From Alphaproteobacteria bacterium (lineage in GTDB: Bacteria > Pseudomonadota > Alphaproteobacteria > Bin95), in contig CBDCQY010000002.1 in assembly GCA_965220855.1 (NCBI GenBank), positions 136,001 to 200,000 of the forward strand: 64,000 bases of DNA, written 5' to 3'. A program made the translations under genes and the position numbers. Under the pieces are notes generated by a model. That model searched no databases, was not told the DNA's origin, and worked only from the letters and a program-made list of their open reading frames with translations. This document shows, piece after piece, positions 20,780 to 41,176 of the stretch; positions within the stretch are counted from its first letter, which is position 1, and the number at the start of each line of letters is the position of its first letter.

Positions 20780-23700
20780 TCAGTCCGGCGAGAATAGCGA
20801 CGCGGCCAGGCGGAACGCGTTGCGGCCGATGCGCTCGCCGATCAGGCGGCCCGGAATGTCGTCCGCCGGCGGGTGAATGCCGCCCCAGATGCGCGACAGG
20901 CTGCACTGGTCGGCGGCGTCGCGATAGGTGGCCCATTGCAGGACCATCGGGCGCGAGGGGCCGCGCTCGAAGGTCAGGAAATCGTCCGCCGGAATGCGGA
21001 AGTCGCTCATGCCGCCGGGAAAGAAGGCGTCGCCGGTAAGCGCGGTCAGCACCTCCGCCGCCGCGCGCGAGAAGGTCGAGTGGCCGGAGACATAGCCTGC
21101 GAAAGGCGGCGTCACGAAAGACGGGCGCTGATAGGGCCACCAGTTCTCGGCCAGAATCCAGCCGACGCCGGCCACATCCCGGTCCGGGTCGCGCACGAAT
21201 TGCGGGCCGCGCCAGGCGCGCAGCTTGATCTTGCCGACATGATCGCCGTACTCGCCCGCCAGCGAGTCGCCGGCCTGGATGAGTTCGATCAGGCCCTCCT
21301 CCAGCGCGATGCCGTCGGCGGAGAAGGACGGCAGCGCCGGATCGCTGGACTGCCCGCGCTCCGCCATGACGCGCAGCGCCGAGATCGGCCGCACATAATC
21401 GTACCAGCCCTTGATGCTCCAGGCGGCGATGGCGGCGTCGTGCAGGGCGCCGCCAAGGGCGAAATAGGCCTTCGCGTCCCACTCCAGCGGATCGAGCGCC
21501 GGACCGCGGCCGGCAAAGCGCGGCTCGAACAGCGCATGGTCGCGAACGGCGTTCAGGATCAGGAACCAGTGGCCGGGCGGGGTTTCCGACTCCGGCCCGT
21601 CGGCCCAGAATTCGGCCAGCACGCGGGCATAGTCGCCCCGCGCCGCCAGCTGCGGCCGGTAGGGCCGGCCGGTGGCGGGATTGACCGCATGGCCCGGACC
21701 GAGCGCGCCATCGCGGTAGAACTCGGGATAGTCCCGGAAGGCGCGCGGCAGCGCCCCCAGATTGCCGATGCCCGACGGCGCGATGTCGAGTTGCACGCCA
21801 TCGTCGGGCGAGAGCTGCGCCGACCAGCGGACCACCAGTCCGAAGCCCCAGCGATAGTCCGCCGGAAACGGGCCGCGCAGCCCCGGCGGCGGCCCCGGAT
21901 CGTCATAGACGGTGAAGGAGGCTCCGTCCCGCTCGCGCACCCTCCGGTCCTCGGGAGCGAGCGCGAAGGGCGTGACGCGGCCCCATTCCGGGGTCACGAA
22001 CGGCGGCTCCTCGCCGACCGAAAACCCCGCCTGATCGACCGACTCGGTGAGCGCCAGCGGCTGCCAGCGATCCGGGTGCTCCATGGTGGGATTGCCGGGC
22101 TCCTCCGGCCAGAGCGACTCGTTGACCGGCTTGTAGGCGAGGCTGCGATAGTCCTCGGCCTCATTGGCGCCGTCCTCGAGGCCGCGCTCGATATAGAAGC
22201 GCCCGAGACAGGCGCCGAAGCGCGCGGCGGCGCTTCGCGCCTCGGTGTCATGGCCGAGCGCGGCCATCAGCGTGTCGGCGTTGCGCGCCGTGGCCAAGGC
22301 GCCGGGCGAGGTGCGGAAGCGGTGGCGGATCAGCCGCCAGGCGGCGTGGCTCACCGCCTCCTCCCGCAGCCGGCGAACATCGCCGCCGACCGGCGGCGTC
22401 CCGCAGGGCGCCTCCGCCTCGCCGAACCGCCACGGCCGCGCCGTGTCGGACCAGGCCGCCCAGGCGTCATACATGGCGGCGGAGAGATGGAAGAGATTGC
22501 GGGCGTGGACGGTCGGGCGGGCGAAATCGTCGCGAATCGCCTGGAGCAGCAGCTCGATCCAGCGCCGCGCCACCGAAACGCCCGCCGCCGGCCCCGGCAG
22601 GAAATGGGCAAACGCCATGGCCGGGCCGTCGGGCATGATGGCGACCGTTTCGGGCGCGCGGGCGTCGCGGAAGCGCACGCCGCCCTCGCCGGTCCAGTGG
22701 CTGAAGCGGTAATGTCCGCGCGCCGGCTCGGCCCGGATCGCGACCGCCTCTCCCGGCCGCTTCGCCCCGCTGCCCTGCCCGCGCGCCACGCTCAGCATGA
22801 CGCCCTCGGGCGGCGGGGCGCGAATCGTGAGCCGGCGGTCGAGCGCGACACGGGCCAGCCGTGTGGCCTGCCCGTCGGGCCAGCGCACCTCCACCGAGGC
22901 CGCCTCGTCCGCGCCCAGCCCGAAATGCAGCACCGGCGGCGCCTGCGAGAGATAGGAGCCGCCGAGGCGCATCTCCTGCAGCTGGCTGCCCGACGCCGAG
23001 CGCACCGTCACCCGCGCGCCGATGCCGGCCGGATTGTCGGGGCCGCCGGCGAGCGCGATCGCCAGCCAGCGATTGTCGTTGTCGAGCGCATTGGCGTAGA
23101 CGGTCGGCGCGGCGGCATGGTTGGCGATGAAGATATCGACCCGTCCGTCGCCGTCATGGTCGGCGCAGATCGCGCCCCGGCCCTGGCCGGTGTGGCGGAT
23201 GCCGAGTTCCGCCGCCCGCTCCGTAAAGCCGCCCGCGCCGTCGGACATGAACAGGCGCGAGGGGTCGATGGCGAATTCGCCCTCGCGTTCGGCGTCGCCG
23301 GGGCCGCTGTCGGCGAGGTCGTGGGGCCAGCCATTGGTCAGGAACAGGTCGGCATGGCCGTCATTGTCGAAATCCGCCCAGCAGGCGCCCCAGCCCCAGC
23401 CGCCGTCGCGCACCCCCGCCGGCCCGGTCGCATTCTCGAAGCGCCCGTCGCCGAGATTGCGATAGAGGCGGTTGCCGGTCGAGCCGAAGGAGGAGCTGCC
23501 GTCCGGGTCGTAGATGCTGGTGACGAACCAGTCGATATCGCCGTCCCGGTCATAGTCGCCGGCGGCCGCGCCCATGCCGTTCTCGTCGTCGATGACGGCG
23601 CCGCCAATGTCCCGGAAAGCCGCGCCGGCCTCGTTGCGCAGCACCTGGCTGGTGCCGAAATCGCCCGCCAGCAGCAGGTCCGGGTCGCCGTCGCCGTCGA

Positions 23701-24409
23701 TGTCGGAGAAGATCGGCGTGAAGGAGAATTCGTAACCCAGGATGCTGTCCGGCAGGATGCCCGGCCGGATCTCCAGCAGGTGGCTCGCATCCTCGAAACG
23801 CCCCTTGCCGTCATTGCGCCAGAGCGCGTGCGCCGGCGGGCGCTGGCCGCTCCACACGCGCATCCAGTGCCCGAAGACGAGATCGAGATCGCCGTCGCCG
23901 TCATAGTCGCCGGCCGCCAGCGAGGTCGCGTGCCGGTGGCGCGGAATGCCGAAGCGCTCGCCGGCGTCCTCGAAGCCCCCCTGCTCGTTCTGGCGGAAAA
24001 TCTGCACGCCGGCCTTCTGGATCGAGATGAATTCCGCCCGCCCGTCCCGGTCGAGATCGAGGAAATAGCCCCCGCCATCCATCGCGGCCGGGCGGATGCC
24101 CCGATTGTCGGCGAGGCGAAGAAAGCGCTCGCCGTTCCAGCCGAACAGCCTGCCGGTTTCGCCCGCGCCATGGGCGACATAGAGTTCGAGGCGCCCGTCC
24201 CTGTCGATATCGACCAGCGCCAGCCCGCCATCCTCCGTCCGGAAGTAAATGTCCCCGTCGATCGCGTCGTCGGCGGGCGGCGGCACATGGTAGGCAAGGC
24301 CGAGGCGTTCGGTGACATTCACGAAGGCGCCCTCGGCCGCCGCCCCGCCGGCGAGCAGGCAGGCGAGCGCCGCAAGGCGGAAGATCGAGGGAGGATTTGC
24401 CGTCAGCAT
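20780..24409 (-). CDS. Secreted multidomain protein: N-terminal CRTAC1-family region (FG-GAP/VCBS repeats + UnbV/ASPIC domain), central InlB-B-repeat-like domain, C-terminal vanadium-dependent haloperoxidase / PAP2-superfamily domain
   Basis: Signal peptide MLTANPPSIFRLAALACLLAGGAAAEGA. Repeated DxDGDGxxD FG-GAP motifs. NRWLAIALAGG...GIGARVTVRSASGSQLQEMRLGGSYLSQAPPVLHFGLG matches UnbV_ASPIC. The C-terminal K-x6-RP (KGWYDYVRP), SGH (YVSGHST) and SRxxxGxHxxxD (SRIWGGIHPPADD) motifs, plus the ARRWIELLLQAIRDD helical start, point to a V-haloperoxidase. Confidence 0.8.
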   Translation of the reverse strand: MLTANPPSIFRLAALACLLAGGAAAEGAFVNVTERLGLAYHVPPPADDAIDGDIYFRTEDGGLALVDIDRDGRLELYVAHGAGETGRLFGWNGERFLRLADNRGIRPAAMDGGGYFLDLDRDGRAEFISIQKAGVQIFRQNEQGGFEDAGERFGIPRHRHATSLAAGDYDGDGDLDLVFGHWMRVWSGQRPPAHALWRNDGKGRFEDASHLLEIRPGILPDSILGYEFSFTPIFSDIDGDGDPDLLLAGDFGTSQVLRNEAGAAFRDIGGAVIDDENGMGAAAGDYDRDGDIDWFVTSIYDPDGSSSFGSTGNRLYRNLGDGRFENATGPAGVRDGGWGWGACWADFDNDGHADLFLTNGWPHDLADSGPGDAEREGEFAIDPSRLFMSDGAGGFTERAAELGIRHTGQGRGAICADHDGDGRVDIFIANHAAAPTVYANALDNDNRWLAIALAGGPDNPAGIGARVTVRSASGSQLQEMRLGGSYLSQAPPVLHFGLGADEAASVEVRWPDGQATRLARVALDRRLTIRAPPPEGVMLSVARGQGSGAKRPGEAVAIRAEPARGHYRFSHWTGEGGVRFRDARAPETVAIMPDGPAMAFAHFLPGPAAGVSVARRWIELLLQAIRDDFARPTVHARNLFHLSAAMYDAWAAWSDTARPWRFGEAEAPCGTPPVGGDVRRLREEAVSHAAWRLIRHRFRTSPGALATARNADTLMAALGHDTEARSAAARFGACLGRFYIERGLEDGANEAEDYRSLAYKPVNESLWPEEPGNPTMEHPDRWQPLALTESVDQAGFSVGEEPPFVTPEWGRVTPFALAPEDRRVRERDGASFTVYDDPGPPPGLRGPFPADYRWGFGLVVRWSAQLSPDDGVQLDIAPSGIGNLGALPRAFRDYPEFYRDGALGPGHAVNPATGRPYRPQLAARGDYARVLAEFWADGPESETPPGHWFLILNAVRDHALFEPRFAGRGPALDPLEWDAKAYFALGGALHDAAIAAWSIKGWYDYVRPISALRVMAERGQSSDPALPSFSADGIALEEGLIELIQAGDSLAGEYGDHVGKIKLRAWRGPQFVRDPDRDVAGVGWILAENWWPYQRPSFVTPPFAGYVSGHSTFSRAAAEVLTALTGDAFFPGGMSDFRIPADDFLTFERGPSRPMVLQWATYRDAADQCSLSRIWGGIHPPADDIPGRLIGERIGRNAFRLAASLFSPD

Positions 24410-24511
24410 GCGCCGGCGGTAAGCCGCCCTGTCTCCCGGCAGTCATTCACCTTGCCGGCTTTATCGAGTGCCGCCCCGATCATTGCGGTAACGTCACCTT
24501 TCCGTTGACAC

Positions 24512-25147
24512 TCAACAAGGTTCGACGCTCAACTCCATGGTGCGTGAGAGGCAGAAGTCCAGATCGTCCGCATGGTAGGAGCGCACCTCCATTTCCACAT
24601 TGGCGCTCTCGCCGTCCCGCTCGCAGGACGCCTCGAAACGGCAACCGGGAGACTCGTGTTCGAACTCCCCGGCCGGCAACACCGAGACCGTCGTCAAGTC
24701 GCAGTAATCGTTCGCGGCGCTCGCCTCGAATCCCGTCCGGCATCTGGCTTCCGTGACGAAGGTAGACTTGTCGCAAATCGAATCGTTGATGTTGCAACAA
24801 TAGATGTCCGCAATCGTGTTGGAGGTCGGAAACACCGTTGTGTTTGTGGGCGTCGCTGCGGTCAGGGTCACTCTCTTGGCCGCGCTGCTTTCGTTTTCCA
24901 TGGTATACAGCAGTTCGACGGTCGCATAGTCGGTGCAGACATTCGTGACCGTCACAGTATGAGTTGTAGGCGGCGTGACCTCGCCGCCATTGAGAGTCTG
25001 CGCGACCGACAAGCAGCCAGCATTATCGTGGTGCGTCGCATTGGGGCATTGGGACGAATCTAGCGCCACGGCCGGATACGCCGCCAGTAGGCCCGCCAGC
25101 GCCGTCGTCGCGATGCGCGTCATTGCGCGCGCGATTGCAAATGTCAT
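24512..25147 (-). CDS. Secreted cysteine-rich protein of unknown function (12 Cys; founding copy of a two-member family in this window)
   Basis: The C-terminal 211 aa of ORF 24512..26485(-). Start MTFAIARAMTRIATTALAGLLAAYPAVALD (signal peptide) preceded by an AAGGGGG RBS. An alternative start lies 13 codons upstream. Its G+C is lower than the flanks. It is a clear paralog of the 60646..61218 protein. Confidence 0.65.
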   Translation of the reverse strand: MTFAIARAMTRIATTALAGLLAAYPAVALDSSQCPNATHHDNAGCLSVAQTLNGGEVTPPTTHTVTVTNVCTDYATVELLYTMENESSAAKRVTLTAATPTNTTVFPTSNTIADIYCCNINDSICDKSTFVTEARCRTGFEASAANDYCDLTTVSVLPAGEFEHESPGCRFEASCERDGESANVEMEVRSYHADDLDFCLSRTMELSVEPC

Positions 25148-25354: not shown

Positions 25355-26752
25355 ATGCGGAACGCCGGCGCGCTGATTCTGGGCTTGATGCTGGGCGCGG
25401 TCGCCGCGCCGGCTGCTGGGCAGACGTCGCCCGACTCCGGTCCGGCGGAGATGGTGCTGACGCTGGACGAGACGATTCGGCTGGCGCTGCAGAACAGCCG
25501 CGCCCTCGTCGGCGCGCGGCTGTCGCGGGCCGAGCAGAAATTCTCGCTCGACATCGCCGAGGACCGCTACCGGCCGCAAGCCAGCATCAGCGCCTCCGCC
25601 AACGCCGCCAACCATGGCGACGAGACCGCCGAGGCCTCTTTCGGCCCCACCCTCAGGGTTCCGACCGGCGGCAATTTCAGCTTGAGCCTGGACAAGCCGC
25701 TCGCCGGCGAGCGGGACCGGTCGAGCGCCTACCGGCTGAGCTTCTCGCAACCGCTGCTGCGGGGCTTCGGCCCCGATATCGACACCGCGCCGCTGCGCAA
25801 GGCGCGGATGCAGGAGCGCATCAACGCCAGCTCCTATCGCAACCGCATCGCCGGCGTGGTGATCTCGGTCATCGGCGCCTACCGGTCGGTCGTCCGGGCG
25901 CAGCGCGCCATCACGATCAGTCGCGGCTCGCTGGAGCGCGCCGCGCGGCAGCTGGAGATCAACCGGGCGCTGATTCGCGCCGGGCGCCTGGCGGCGCGAG
26001 AAATCGTGCAGAGCGAGGCGGAGGTCGCCAACCGCGAACTGTCGCTGATCGAAACCGAGAACAGCCTGCAATCGGCCAGATCCTCCCTCATCAACATTCT
26101 CGACATCGACACGCCGACCCGCATCCGCCTGGAGGAGGCGCTCGACGTGGAGCCGCTGCGCCCCGATCTGGAGGAGAGCATCGAGACGGCCTTCGCGCGG
26201 CGCACCGACCATCTGCAGGCGGTGCTCGGCGTCGATCGCGCCCGGATCGACCTCGGCGTCGCGCGGAACGCCCGGCTCTGGGACCTCCGGCTGAACGCCG
26301 GCATGTCGGGCCGCAGCGACGAGGCGCAGATCGACTATCGCGCCGGCCTGAACCTGACCATCCCGCTCACCGACCGGTCGCCCGACCTCGGCCTGCTGCG
26401 GGCGCAGAACGATCTGCGCCGCGCCGAGATGGCGCTCCAGGAGTCGCGCCAGGCGATTCGGATCGAGGTGCGCCAGGCGGTGCACGATGTCGAGGTGGGG
26501 CTGAGGAAGATCGAGCTGGCCCGAAAGTCCCGCGAGCTCGCGGAGCAGAAGCTCGACATCGAGCAGAAGAAGCTGGCCCAGGGGCTGACCTCGACATTCC
26601 GGCTCACACAGGTGGAAGACGATCTCGTTCGGGCGCAGAATGGTGAACTGGACTCCATTCTGTCCTATCTTAACGCCCTGACCTCGCTGGACAGGACGCT
26701 TGGCACCACGCTCGACCGCTGGGGCGTCGATGTCGAGAGGAGCGGGCAGTGA
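25355..26752 (+). CDS. TolC-family outer-membrane efflux/secretion channel
   Basis: Start at M42 of ORF 25232..26752 (MRNAGALILGLMLGAVAAPAAGQ signal peptide). Two-repeat OEP architecture (TIRLALQNSRAL..., ...LYRAQNDLRRAE...). GAGGGG RBS. Confidence 0.85.
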   Translation: MRNAGALILGLMLGAVAAPAAGQTSPDSGPAEMVLTLDETIRLALQNSRALVGARLSRAEQKFSLDIAEDRYRPQASISASANAANHGDETAEASFGPTLRVPTGGNFSLSLDKPLAGERDRSSAYRLSFSQPLLRGFGPDIDTAPLRKARMQERINASSYRNRIAGVVISVIGAYRSVVRAQRAITISRGSLERAARQLEINRALIRAGRLAAREIVQSEAEVANRELSLIETENSLQSARSSLINILDIDTPTRIRLEEALDVEPLRPDLEESIETAFARRTDHLQAVLGVDRARIDLGVARNARLWDLRLNAGMSGRSDEAQIDYRAGLNLTIPLTDRSPDLGLLRAQNDLRRAEMALQESRQAIRIEVRQAVHDVEVGLRKIELARKSRELAEQKLDIEQKKLAQGLTSTFRLTQVEDDLVRAQNGELDSILSYLNALTSLDRTLGTTLDRWGVDVERSGQ

Positions 26753-28524
26753 CCGACGCAGACGCGCCTTTCGACCGCAATATCCTCGACAACCTCCTGG
26801 ACGGGGTGGTGATCGTCGGGCTGGACGGCGTGCTGCGCACCGTCAATCCGGCGGCCGCCGCCATGTTCGGGCTGGAGCCGGAAGCCGTCGCCGGCAGGAC
26901 CTTCGTCGAGGTCTTCATCGCCATCGAGGGCTTCGACGAATTCACCCAGACGGTGCTGGACGCGGTCGCCGACCGCACCGAGGAGGGCCGGCGGGTCATC
27001 GGCGTGCGGCTCGGCGACGAGGACCGGTCGCTCACCGTGACCATCTCCTACATGGAAGCTCCCGACGGCGCCGCCAGCGTCATCGTGGTGCTGAGCGACA
27101 TCACCGAGATTCGCGAGCTGCGCGAGAGCCAGCTGCGCATGGCCCAGGCGATCGAGGAGCAGAACGCCGAACTGCAGCAGGCCTATCGCGACGTCGAGAA
27201 GACCAATGAGGAGCTGACCTCGACCCTGAAGAAAGTGCAGCTCGCGCGCGTGCTGGCGACGGTGGTGGTGATCGTGCTGTTTCTCGGCGTCGGCGGCTGG
27301 GGCTGGGGCGTATCGGGCCTCTTCGACGATTCGGACGATCCCGACCCCCTGCCGGTGGCGGAGGCCGGCGTTCCCGGCGAAGTGCGCACCGTGACGGTGC
27401 GTCCGCGCGCGTTCGACGCCACCGTTTCGCTGATCGGCCGTCTGGCGCCCTGGCGCCAGGTGCAGGTGGTCGCGCCCATCGCCGGCCATGTGCGCGAGGT
27501 GCTGTTCGACTATGGGCAGCAGGTCGCCGAGGGGGACCGGCTGGTGACGCTCGACACGGCGGCGCTCCGGCTCGAATATCAGCAAAGCGAGGTCGATTAT
27601 CGGAAGGCCCAGAACGCGCTCCGCGATATCGACAATTGGGAGAACGGCGCCGAGGTGTCCAATGCGCTGCGCTCCTACACCAAGGCCAAGATGGCGCTCG
27701 ACCAGCAGGACCACAAGCTCAGGACCTCCGCCTTTCTGCTGAAGGAGGGTCTGATCTCGGTCGAGGAGCACGAGGATCTGAAGCTCCGGCACGAGAACCA
27801 GCTGCTCGACTTCGAGGCCATCGAGCAGGATCTGGCGGCGGCTCGCGCCAGGGGCGGCGCCGAGGCGCGGCGGGTGGCGCAGCTGGAGTACGACAAGGCG
27901 GAGAACCGGTTCCGGACCCTGGAGCGCCAGCTGAAGATCGACAAGGTGACGGCGCCGATCGGCGGCGTCGCCCGGCCGCCGGGCCGCCTCGCCGCCGGGC
28001 TGGCCCCCGGCCAGGAGCTCAAGCAGGGCGACGCGCTGCTGCGGATCGCCGACTTCACCCGCATGTCGGTGGAGGCCCAGGTCGATGAGGTGGAGGTCTC
28101 GACCATCCAGGTCGGCCAGCCGGTGACCGTCACCGGCGACGCCTTTCCCGGCTTGCAGATTCCCGGCGCGATCAGCCAGGTCTCCGCCCAGGCGGTCAAG
28201 GCGTCCGGCCGGGGGCCGGCGCGCTTTGCGATCGTCGCCACGCTCGAACCGCTCGAGGACGAGCACAAGCGGCTGGTGCGCGCCGGCATGTCGGCGCGGA
28301 TGCGCATCGTGACCTACAGCAATCCCTCCGCCCTGATGGTGCCGCTCGACGCCGTGGAGGGCGGCGGCGATGGCAAGGCGTGGCTCCGCGTGCGCGACGC
28401 CGCCACCGGCGAGATCGAGGAGCGGGAGGTCCGGGTCGGGCTGACCACGCAGCGCTCCGTGGAGGTGACCGGCGGCCTCGAAAGCGGCGCCGAGGTGGTG
28501 CTGCCGTCGTCGGCGGACGGATAG
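26749..28524 (+). CDS. HlyD-family periplasmic adaptor (membrane fusion protein) with an N-terminal cytoplasmic PAS domain
   Basis: Residues about 10-130 form a PAS fold (ILDNLLDGVVIVGLDGVLRTVNPAAAAMFGL...), followed by a coiled coil, a TM helix (VLATVVVIVLFLGVGGWGWGV), then MFP lipoyl/beta-barrel segments (VTAPIGGV..., QVGQPVTVTGDAFPG...). GTGA overlap with tolC. Confidence 0.8.
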   Translation: MTDADAPFDRNILDNLLDGVVIVGLDGVLRTVNPAAAAMFGLEPEAVAGRTFVEVFIAIEGFDEFTQTVLDAVADRTEEGRRVIGVRLGDEDRSLTVTISYMEAPDGAASVIVVLSDITEIRELRESQLRMAQAIEEQNAELQQAYRDVEKTNEELTSTLKKVQLARVLATVVVIVLFLGVGGWGWGVSGLFDDSDDPDPLPVAEAGVPGEVRTVTVRPRAFDATVSLIGRLAPWRQVQVVAPIAGHVREVLFDYGQQVAEGDRLVTLDTAALRLEYQQSEVDYRKAQNALRDIDNWENGAEVSNALRSYTKAKMALDQQDHKLRTSAFLLKEGLISVEEHEDLKLRHENQLLDFEAIEQDLAAARARGGAEARRVAQLEYDKAENRFRTLERQLKIDKVTAPIGGVARPPGRLAAGLAPGQELKQGDALLRIADFTRMSVEAQVDEVEVSTIQVGQPVTVTGDAFPGLQIPGAISQVSAQAVKASGRGPARFAIVATLEPLEDEHKRLVRAGMSARMRIVTYSNPSALMVPLDAVEGGGDGKAWLRVRDAATGEIEEREVRVGLTTQRSVEVTGGLESGAEVVLPSSADG

Positions 28525-41017: not shown

Positions 41018-41067
41018 TTTGAAGATTCGTGCGATAGCCGACTTTTTGAAGATTCGTGCGACAGCCG
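41018..41067. repeat. Two tandem copies of a 23-25 bp direct repeat (TTTGAAGATTCGTGCGA[T/C]AGCCG), period 27 bp, in the upstream region of island gene A
   Basis: Copies at about 41018-41040 and 41043-41067, lying 65-115 nt upstream of the gene A start codon at the island/glyA boundary. Confidence 0.6.
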
Positions 41068-41176
41068 GCGCAATGGGCCTCCATAGGGACCTGCCGCCCG
41101 GCCGCCGGCCGCGCGCTGGCGGGAGCGGCGGGATTTGCTAAGGTGGGCGGGCGTTCCTTATCGGAGGTGCTTGCGA

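Follow-up and report, generated by a model that had tools for sequence, protein, structure and literature searches.

We analysed a 64-kb stretch of alphaproteobacterial DNA from contig CBDCQY010000002.1 (hereafter the window) and focused on a gene at positions 20780..24409, whose product joins a CRTAC1-like module to a domain related to vanadium-dependent haloperoxidases (V-HPOs). An earlier note on this DNA had described a tri-domain open reading frame (ORF) here. Its coordinates proved exact, and its order of parts (CRTAC1-like, small beta-sandwich, V-HPO-like) was borne out by Pfam, AlphaFold2 (AF2) models and Foldseek; the strand, which the note did not give, is the minus strand. According to the ORF list and the translation, the coding sequence starts with ATG and forms a single uninterrupted frame of 1209 codons plus a stop codon. 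Read on the plus strand, 20780..24409 contains stops throughout its translation. A 1211-aa plus-strand ORF (20873..24508) overlaps the whole gene, and because its GC content at third codon positions (GC3) is 0.72 compared to 0.89 in the minus-strand ORF, we rejected it as an antisense shadow of the high GC content, which is ~70% in the surrounding window. An independent gene caller applied to the 154-kb ENA contig ERZ26695471:contig_42 gave the same result for the 1209-aa product and its neighbours, and the protein on that contig (P0001) is 99% identical to the window protein. A promoter and terminator scan around the fusion gene found none.

Residues 1-25 (MLTANPPSIFRLAALACLLAGGAAA, followed by EG; 24335..24409, minus strand), read from the sequence by eye, constitute a predicted Sec signal peptide, and homologues carry export signals at the equivalent N-terminal place. 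These are signal peptidase I (SPI) signals in the alphaproteobacterial members, including the window protein, lipoprotein signals (…C-GGGG) with a Gly/Pro-rich tether in the gammaproteobacterial members, and SPI signals plus a type IX secretion system (T9SS) tail in the flavobacterial members. The N-terminus and the homologue signals support the earlier proposal of a signal-bearing, secreted protein, here with predicted export via the Sec signal peptide, and, judged by such predicted signals, family members are always exported.

The CRTAC1-like module begins with a seven-bladed FG-GAP beta-propeller (residues ~26-460; 23030..24334, minus strand), which was identified by Foldseek, by Pfam FG-GAP_3 matches in five stretches (E 7.6e-40, above the cut-off) and by seven Ca2+-type DxDxDG loops at residues 67, 118, 168, 236, 285, 346 and 417 that correspond to the seven blades. 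The Asp residues of these loops are conserved across the family (alignment A2). The module is closed by a UnbV_ASPIC domain (PF07593; residues ~462-535; 22805..23026, minus strand), which Pfam placed at residues 462-528 with an E-value of 7.6e-21 and 74 bits against a cut-off of 23.4, and which is also covered by the match to murine CRTAC1 (PDB 9etn). The N-terminal half found this structure both in a phmmer search (E 3.6e-24) and, as part of the full-length model, in Foldseek (9etn_A, E 1e-24, 570 aligned columns with 22% identity). An FG-GAP propeller with DxDxDG loops followed by UnbV_ASPIC is thus common to CRTAC1/ASPIC, bacterial CRTAC1-like proteins and the window protein, but the latter lacks the EGF-like tail of CRTAC1. 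The EGF family was absent from the Pfam scan of the window protein, in which the beta-sandwich and the V-HPO-like domain occupy that place and the module makes up the first half of a fusion with an enzyme.

After CRTAC1, Foldseek ranked fungal N-acetylglucosamine (GlcNAc)-binding FG-GAP lectins and integrin alpha propellers for the N-terminal half. The match to the seven-bladed fungal lectins PVL of Psathyrella velutina and AAL2 of Agrocybe (E ~1e-8) is a structural resemblance only, and these lectins, unlike the window protein, have no catalytic partner domain; by this resemblance, a sugar-binding role of the propeller is possible. Between the two halves lies a small beta-sandwich linker that is InlB B-repeat-like (residues ~540-606; 22592..22792, minus strand) and appears in the full-length AF2 model as six strands with a high predicted local distance difference test score (pLDDT). 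Its Pfam match, Flg_new_2 (PF18998) at residues 546-604, reached 22.3 bits and fell below the cut-off of 23.6, whereas homologues scored 41-42 bits. Flavobacterial members have a PKD-like domain instead of this sandwich.

Catalytic domain and active site

The C-terminal part of the protein (residues ~612-1209; 20783..22576, minus strand) was identified from the AF2 model, Foldseek and a family profile as a V-HPO-fold catalytic domain of two helical bundles (DUF6851 and VCPO_2nd) with beta insertions. In Pfam, DUF6851 (PF21167) scored 24.5 bits at residues 643-784 and VCPO_2nd (PF22778) 26.0 bits at residues 1105-1179, both below the cut-off of 27, whereas homologues scored 28-53 and 28-35 bits, respectively. 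PAP2 reached 16.9 bits against a cut-off of 27.2, and no NCBIfam model matched the window protein.

We modelled residues 604-1209 with AF2 by using 41 homologues (42-sequence alignment A1) and obtained a pLDDT of 86.3 and a predicted template modelling score (pTM) of 0.91. The top Foldseek match of this domain in the PDB was NapH1 (E 2e-16, template modelling (TM) score of 0.75 normalised to the target), and further matches were vanadate-bound XhnO11 (9l8x), NapH3, the vanadium iodoperoxidase (VIPO) of Zobellia and the vanadium chloroperoxidase (VCPO) of Curvularia (E ~1e-11). Algal bromoperoxidases ranked lower (E ~1e-3), and classical PAP2 acid phosphatases appeared only at E>1. A sequence search of the PDB with the C-terminal half found only V-HPO-family chains (9l8x at 6e-11, 4cit at 7e-7, esVHPO 9ptr, NapH3 and NapH1). 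With a profile of 41 diverse family members, all significant PDB matches were again of the V-HPO family (V-HPOs and the homologue NapH3), and there was no phosphatase at E<=10. Because the structural, sequence and profile matches all belong to the V-HPO family and PAP2 phosphatases went undetected, we assign the domain to the V-HPO fold. The earlier note had allowed either a haloperoxidase or a PAP2 phosphatase; by fold, the domain matches V-HPOs and not plain PAP2. The AF2 model of the mature full-length protein (1184 aa) reached a pLDDT of 84 and a pTM of 0.82, and the three modules are therefore predicted to stand in a defined mutual arrangement. When the full-length model was searched with Foldseek, no solved PDB chain spanned both halves.

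Three motifs make up the active site. Motif 1 (W997-x2-K1000-x6-R1007-P1008, AWSIKGWYDYVRP; 21386..21421, minus strand) matches W-x2-K-x6-RP of 4cit, and motif 2 (F1103-x4-S1108-G1109-H1110, PPFAGYVSGH; 21080..21103, minus strand) matches PPFPEYTSGH of the same structure. Motif 3 (S1172-R1173-x5-H1179-x3-D1183, SRIWGGIHPPAD; 20861..20896, minus strand) shares SR…GG(I/V)H with V-HPOs. The stretch KGWYDYVRP corresponds to residues 1000-1008, YVSGHST holds S1108, G1109 and H1110, and SRIWGGIHPPADD holds R1173, H1179 and D1183, so that the vanadate/phosphate-binding motifs are, as had been claimed, all present. We aligned the window protein with 76 full-length relatives from four phyla (77 members, 37-69% identity) and found K1000, R1007, P1008, F1103, S1108, G1109, H1110, R1173, H1179 and D1183 to be invariant in 76-77 of the 77 sequences: Lys, Arg and Pro of motif 1 and the residues of motif 2 in 77, and those of motif 3 in 76-77. 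W997 is invariant in the separate alignment A1 (W394 in domain numbering), and all three motifs are kept in 126 of 134 full-domain representatives at 50% identity.

W997 and F1103 coincide with a Trp and a Phe in the alignment to 4cit (Zobellia VIPO) and are the counterparts of Trp350 and Phe397 in Curvularia VCPO, which are putative halide-pocket residues (PMC9144378); the Phe397 position holds His in the vanadium bromoperoxidase (VBPO) of Corallina and Phe in Zobellia VIPO (PMC9144378). Lys353, Arg360, Ser402, Gly403, His404, Arg490 and His496 of Curvularia VCPO, whose roles in vanadate binding are described in part in PMC9144378, likewise have equivalents in the window protein. Because the vanadate-binding set and the equivalents of the Trp/Phe halide pocket are invariant, a catalytically competent site of the haloperoxidase type is supported, and the catalytic competence predicted from the motifs still stands on this invariant oxyanion and halide-pocket set.

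The closest solved relatives, the bacterial V-HPOs NapH1, XhnO11 and esVHPO (3w35/3w36, 9l8x and 9ptr, respectively) and the VIPO of Zobellia galactanivorans (4cit/4usz), share the two-helical-bundle fold with the window domain (target-normalised TM 0.66-0.75) and can be aligned at K-x6-RP, SGH and SR-x5-H, and Zobellia VIPO has the Trp/Phe pocket as well. The window domain is ~140 residues longer than theirs (606 versus ~460 aa), mostly through beta insertions, and further differences of the protein are its CRTAC1-like fusion, its export, an identity of only 15-19% and an invariant Asp at His+4. Motif 3 aligns to 9l8x, 9ptr, NapH1, NapH3 and 4cit, and this Asp is missing in all five. The VCPO of Curvularia inaequalis (1vnc/1vni) has the same fold (Foldseek E 1e-11), but the TM score is only ~0.5 and the identity 14%, and it is a fungal single-domain enzyme, unlike the window fusion. 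With the Asp, the window protein contains the full signature KX6RP / SGH / SRX5HX3D of class A non-specific acid phosphatases and the PAP2 superfamily, and these have the three motifs, including HX3D, in common with it. PAP2 phosphatases, however, are single-bundle proteins of ~200-250 aa and gave no significant sequence, profile or structure match to the window protein.

Distribution and loci of the family

The earlier note had regarded the fusion as unusual, and this was not the case. A search of 5.8 billion proteins yielded 6130 matches, and among the best 120 clusters at 90% identity, which we inspected (50-69% identity to the window protein, ~1150-1350 aa, mostly >=95% coverage), nearly all had the same Pfam combination. 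The architecture is therefore common; a name exists only in the generic sense that NCBI calls family members "FG-GAP-like repeat-containing protein". A genome scan with one genome per species found at least 584 stretches with relatives, some of which may be single-domain, and the results on loci given below refer to the best 80 of these. In about 75 of the 80 loci, a single ORF covers both halves, and 76 ORFs >1100 aa align with the query from end to end. The carriers belong to several phyla and comprise Alphaproteobacteria/Rhodospirillales metagenome-assembled genomes (MAGs), many Gammaproteobacteria (including Pseudomonadales, Azotimanducaceae, Halioglobus, Cognaticolwellia and Gilvimarinus), Flavobacteriaceae/Cyclobacteriaceae (the Flavobacteriaceae including Polaribacter, Wenyingzhuangia, Seonamhaeicola, Flavivirga and Psychroserpens) and sponge bins labelled as Chloroflexi. 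Nearly all are marine, sponge-associated or seaweed-associated taxa, with many sponge symbionts, and several genomes contain two or three copies.

We also ran an exhaustive HMMER search with only the catalytic domain, which returned 746 representatives at 50% identity with E<=1e-30, and classed the best 150 by architecture. The CRTAC1-like module was N-terminal in 29 and C-terminal in 2, whereas 33 proteins were <800 aa and 86 had other extensions, such as T9SS sorting tails, MopE-type metal motifs, SdrD-B repeats and F5/8-C sugar-binding domains. One variant of 1759 aa has a doubled CRTAC1 module. In Cognaticolwellia mytili, a Gilvimarinus sp. and a Steroidobacteraceae MAG, the halves are adjacent genes (L035:7680-11447, L047:7761-11483 and L051:4509-8216), the first CRTAC1-like and the next encoding a V-HPO-like lipoprotein. 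In this split form, the CRTAC1-like gene stops right after UnbV_ASPIC, and the V-HPO-like gene has a lipoprotein signal (…C-GGG…) and no InlB-like sandwich; presumably each half has its own export signal. Because fused and split forms both occur, the two halves probably work together, and the gene arrangements argue for a functional coupling between them.

The orthologue in the nearest genome, an Alphaproteobacteria MAG (L001, OZ244893.1), is 90% identical and is broken at residue ~874 by a 2.4-kb insertion (L001:10623-13054) with two ORFs, one for an IS66-type transposase (532 aa) and one that is TnpB-like (121 aa).

The loci link the family to transporter genes. One homologous subfamily of TonB-dependent receptors lies near the family gene in 17 loci, and in ~10 gammaproteobacterial loci the receptor gene directly precedes the family gene on the same strand, 2-171 bp away. 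Flavobacterial loci have SusC/SusD pairs near the family gene. In five gammaproteobacterial loci (L022, L024, L025, L028 and L076), the start of a sulfatase gene overlaps the stop codon of the fusion gene, with a TonB-dependent receptor nearby; this sulfatase has no obvious signal peptide. Amidohydrolases and beta-lactamase-like hydrolases are further recurrent neighbours. NapH1/XhnO11-type V-HPOs differ in this respect, being found in natural-product clusters.

In our literature search, we found no paper that describes the fusion or the V-HPO-like subfamily; a published study of an alkyl-quinolone V-HPO makes no mention of such fusions, and the literature on the CRTAC1 structure gave no functional lead. 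The family is large, modular, mostly marine and uncharacterised, and the window copy is an ordinary member. Of note are the breadth of the V-HPO-like fusion family and its link to transporter loci, the window locus itself being unexceptional.

Candidate activities

Our preferred reading, to which we give about an even chance, is that the window protein works outside the cytoplasm as a vanadate-dependent haloperoxidase that is anchored to a binding propeller; we infer vanadate use, halide oxidation and the role of the propeller. Vanadate would be bound by the axial ligand His1179 in a pocket formed by Lys1000, Arg1007, Ser1108, Gly1109 and Arg1173, and peroxovanadate would arise from H2O2, assisted by His1110 and Lys1000. 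A halide near the Trp997/Phe1103 pocket would then be oxidised, yielding hypohalous acid or an equivalent held by the enzyme, and the oxidised halogen species would halogenate or oxidise organic matter nearby, outside the cytoplasm. The propeller would act as a binding or positioning module that is packed in a fixed arrangement against the enzyme. Surface-directed chemistry by the window protein, which had been suggested before, is plausible. The marine, sponge and seaweed habitats support the haloperoxidase reading because halides and vanadate are available there.

Several observations weigh on the other side. Identity to solved V-HPOs is only 15-19%, VCPO_2nd and DUF6851 fall just short of the Pfam cut-offs in the window protein, and we found no biochemical data on any member in the literature. 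Some V-HPO homologues, such as NapH3 (according to its PDB description), have no halogenase activity. The family-invariant Asp at His+4 (HPPAD) is the PAP2-phosphatase form of motif 3, which the five closest solved V-HPO homologues do not have. No H2O2-producing enzyme occurs among the recurrent neighbours, and the TonB-dependent receptors, SusC/SusD, sulfatase and amidohydrolase resemble a nutrient-uptake setting. Moreover, because of the IS66 insertion, the gene is inactivated, and thus dispensable, in the L001 genome.

Characterised bacterial V-HPOs are known mainly from the modification of natural products or quorum signals. If the family consists of active V-HPOs, the known producers of reactive halogen species would grow by hundreds of bacterial species, many sponge symbionts and seaweed-associated Flavobacteriia among them, and haloperoxidase chemistry would be linked to loci for nutrient uptake as well as to lipoprotein or T9SS secretion.

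The main rival, which we consider unlikely, yet worth weighing, is a histidine-nucleophile phosphoesterase that performs PAP2-type chemistry on the V-HPO scaffold and releases phosphate or dephosphorylates substrates at the surface or in the periplasm for nutrient acquisition, with the propeller binding the substrate. The complete PAP2 signature fits this alternative, including as it does the invariant Asp at His+4 that the closest solved V-HPOs lack, and apo-VCPO can dephosphorylate (PDB 3bb0 title; PMC9144378). The TonB-dependent receptors, the overlapping sulfatase and the SusC/SusD context are likewise a signature of uptake and not of halogenation. However, the domain has a V-HPO fold, every significant match by sequence, profile or structure belongs to the V-HPO family, dedicated PAP2 phosphatases went undetected, and the Trp and Phe positions of the halide pocket are invariant. 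We know of no two-bundle V-HPO-fold protein that is a dedicated phosphatase, and a phosphoesterase here would be the first dedicated phosphatase on this scaffold. With either activity, the bacterial CRTAC1-like propellers would gain a defined enzymatic partner, as the fused and split gene forms suggest.

Quite improbable, in our judgement, is that the domain catalyses a different reaction or serves for ligand binding alone, for example a non-halogenating reaction like that of NapH3, or the capture of an oxyanion or a sulfated or phosphorylated ligand that is passed to the TonB-dependent transporter. NapH3 is a case in which the V-HPO fold has been reused for vanadium-independent chemistry, and a TonB-dependent receptor next to a lipoprotein resembles, by analogy, pairs of receptor and capture protein. 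The catalytic domain is also very modular, being joined to SdrD-B repeats, MopE motifs and F5/8-C domains (adhesin-like or sugar-binding). Against this reading, the vanadate-bound halogenase 9l8x is among the closest structural matches, and all catalytic residues, including the acid-base His1110 and Lys1000, are strictly invariant over four phyla; canonical catalysis is therefore favoured over binding alone.

Returning to the haloperoxidase reading, a wider version of it is a long shot. In this version, the family would be a widespread class of cell-surface V-HPOs coupled to TonB-dependent or SusCD-type uptake in marine bacteria, the propeller would bind to a polymer or host surface, the enzyme would draw on ambient H2O2 and halide to halogenate recalcitrant or sulfated organic matter or to loosen it by oxidation, and the products would be imported. 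If true, marine organohalogen formation, as well as symbiosis with sponges and seaweeds, would have a bacterial contributor that has so far gone unrecognised.

Finally, we exclude an artefact, be it a chimeric assembly, two genes run together through an overlooked stop codon or a frameshift, or a spurious long frame, for although GC-rich DNA yields long spurious ORFs such as the 1211-aa antisense ORF and the halves are separate genes in three genomes, the codon-position GC pattern fits a real minus-strand gene, the same architecture recurs in >100 protein clusters and ~75 genome loci from independent assemblies that include complete chromosomes, the full-length AF2 model is confident over the domain junctions, and the same 1209-aa product was called independently on the ENA contig.

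Neighbouring genes in the window

The fusion gene converges on a plus-strand housekeeping block with KDO8P-synthase-like, enolase, two acyl-CoA synthetase, NMO and luciferase-like monooxygenase genes. A conserved link to the downstream monooxygenase and acyl-CoA synthetase genes was rejected, since the 80 loci showed no such co-occurrence.

On the other side, 102 bp upstream of the fusion gene and on the same strand, lies the gene of a 211-aa signal-bearing secreted protein with 12 Cys residues (24512..25147, minus strand). The protein has no Pfam match, and no terminator-like site was found between the two genes. The earlier note had placed the fusion gene directly downstream of this gene and thought co-transcription possible. 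The adjacency is correct, but a conserved link with the family is not: among the 80 loci, a Cys-rich gene at this position of the fusion gene occurs only in the sister genome L001. Past the Cys-rich gene follows a divergent operon for a TolC-like OEP, a PAS-HlyD adaptor, and a MacB-type ATPase and permease. The adaptor is an HlyD-family membrane-fusion protein with an N-terminal PAS domain (26749-28524 of the window, plus strand; PAS_4 5e-11, HlyD_3 1.6e-14), an unusual sensor-adaptor fusion that is kept in L001, L003 and L019.

Relatives of the Cys-rich gene occur at L019:1991-2599 (minus strand), L001:61-708 (plus strand, a second copy) and L003:17895-18812 (minus strand). With the upstream 211-aa protein, their products form a small family of secreted proteins that are 200-300 aa long and have 12-20 Cys, a CC pair in the middle of the protein and a C-terminal Cys, with pairwise E-values of 1e-5 to 1e-17. 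In all three loci, which are alphaproteobacterial, these relatives adjoin a PAS-HlyD/MacB/TolC-like pump, and the one in L003 is the first gene of the pump operon and lies 6 kb away from the fusion gene. Because the relatives sit beside the pump, we assign the Cys-rich gene to the pump. A conserved operon of the fusion gene and the Cys-rich gene was accordingly rejected, the arrangement being found at this position only in L001 and the distant relatives tracking the MacAB-TolC-like pump. By analogy with the Cys-rich enterotoxin STII and MacAB-TolC, the Cys-rich proteins may be cargo of this pump.

Scans of the whole 64-kb window for tRNA genes and for Rfam families at the gathering score found none. 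Elsewhere in the window, a stretch of low GC content (38600-41130; 0.61-0.64 compared to ~0.71) lies between a SAICAR-synthase-like and a glyA-like gene (both named by eye) and contains two minus-strand ORFs of atypical composition, at 39383-40393 (336 aa) and 40363-41073 (236 aa); it may be a small acquired island.

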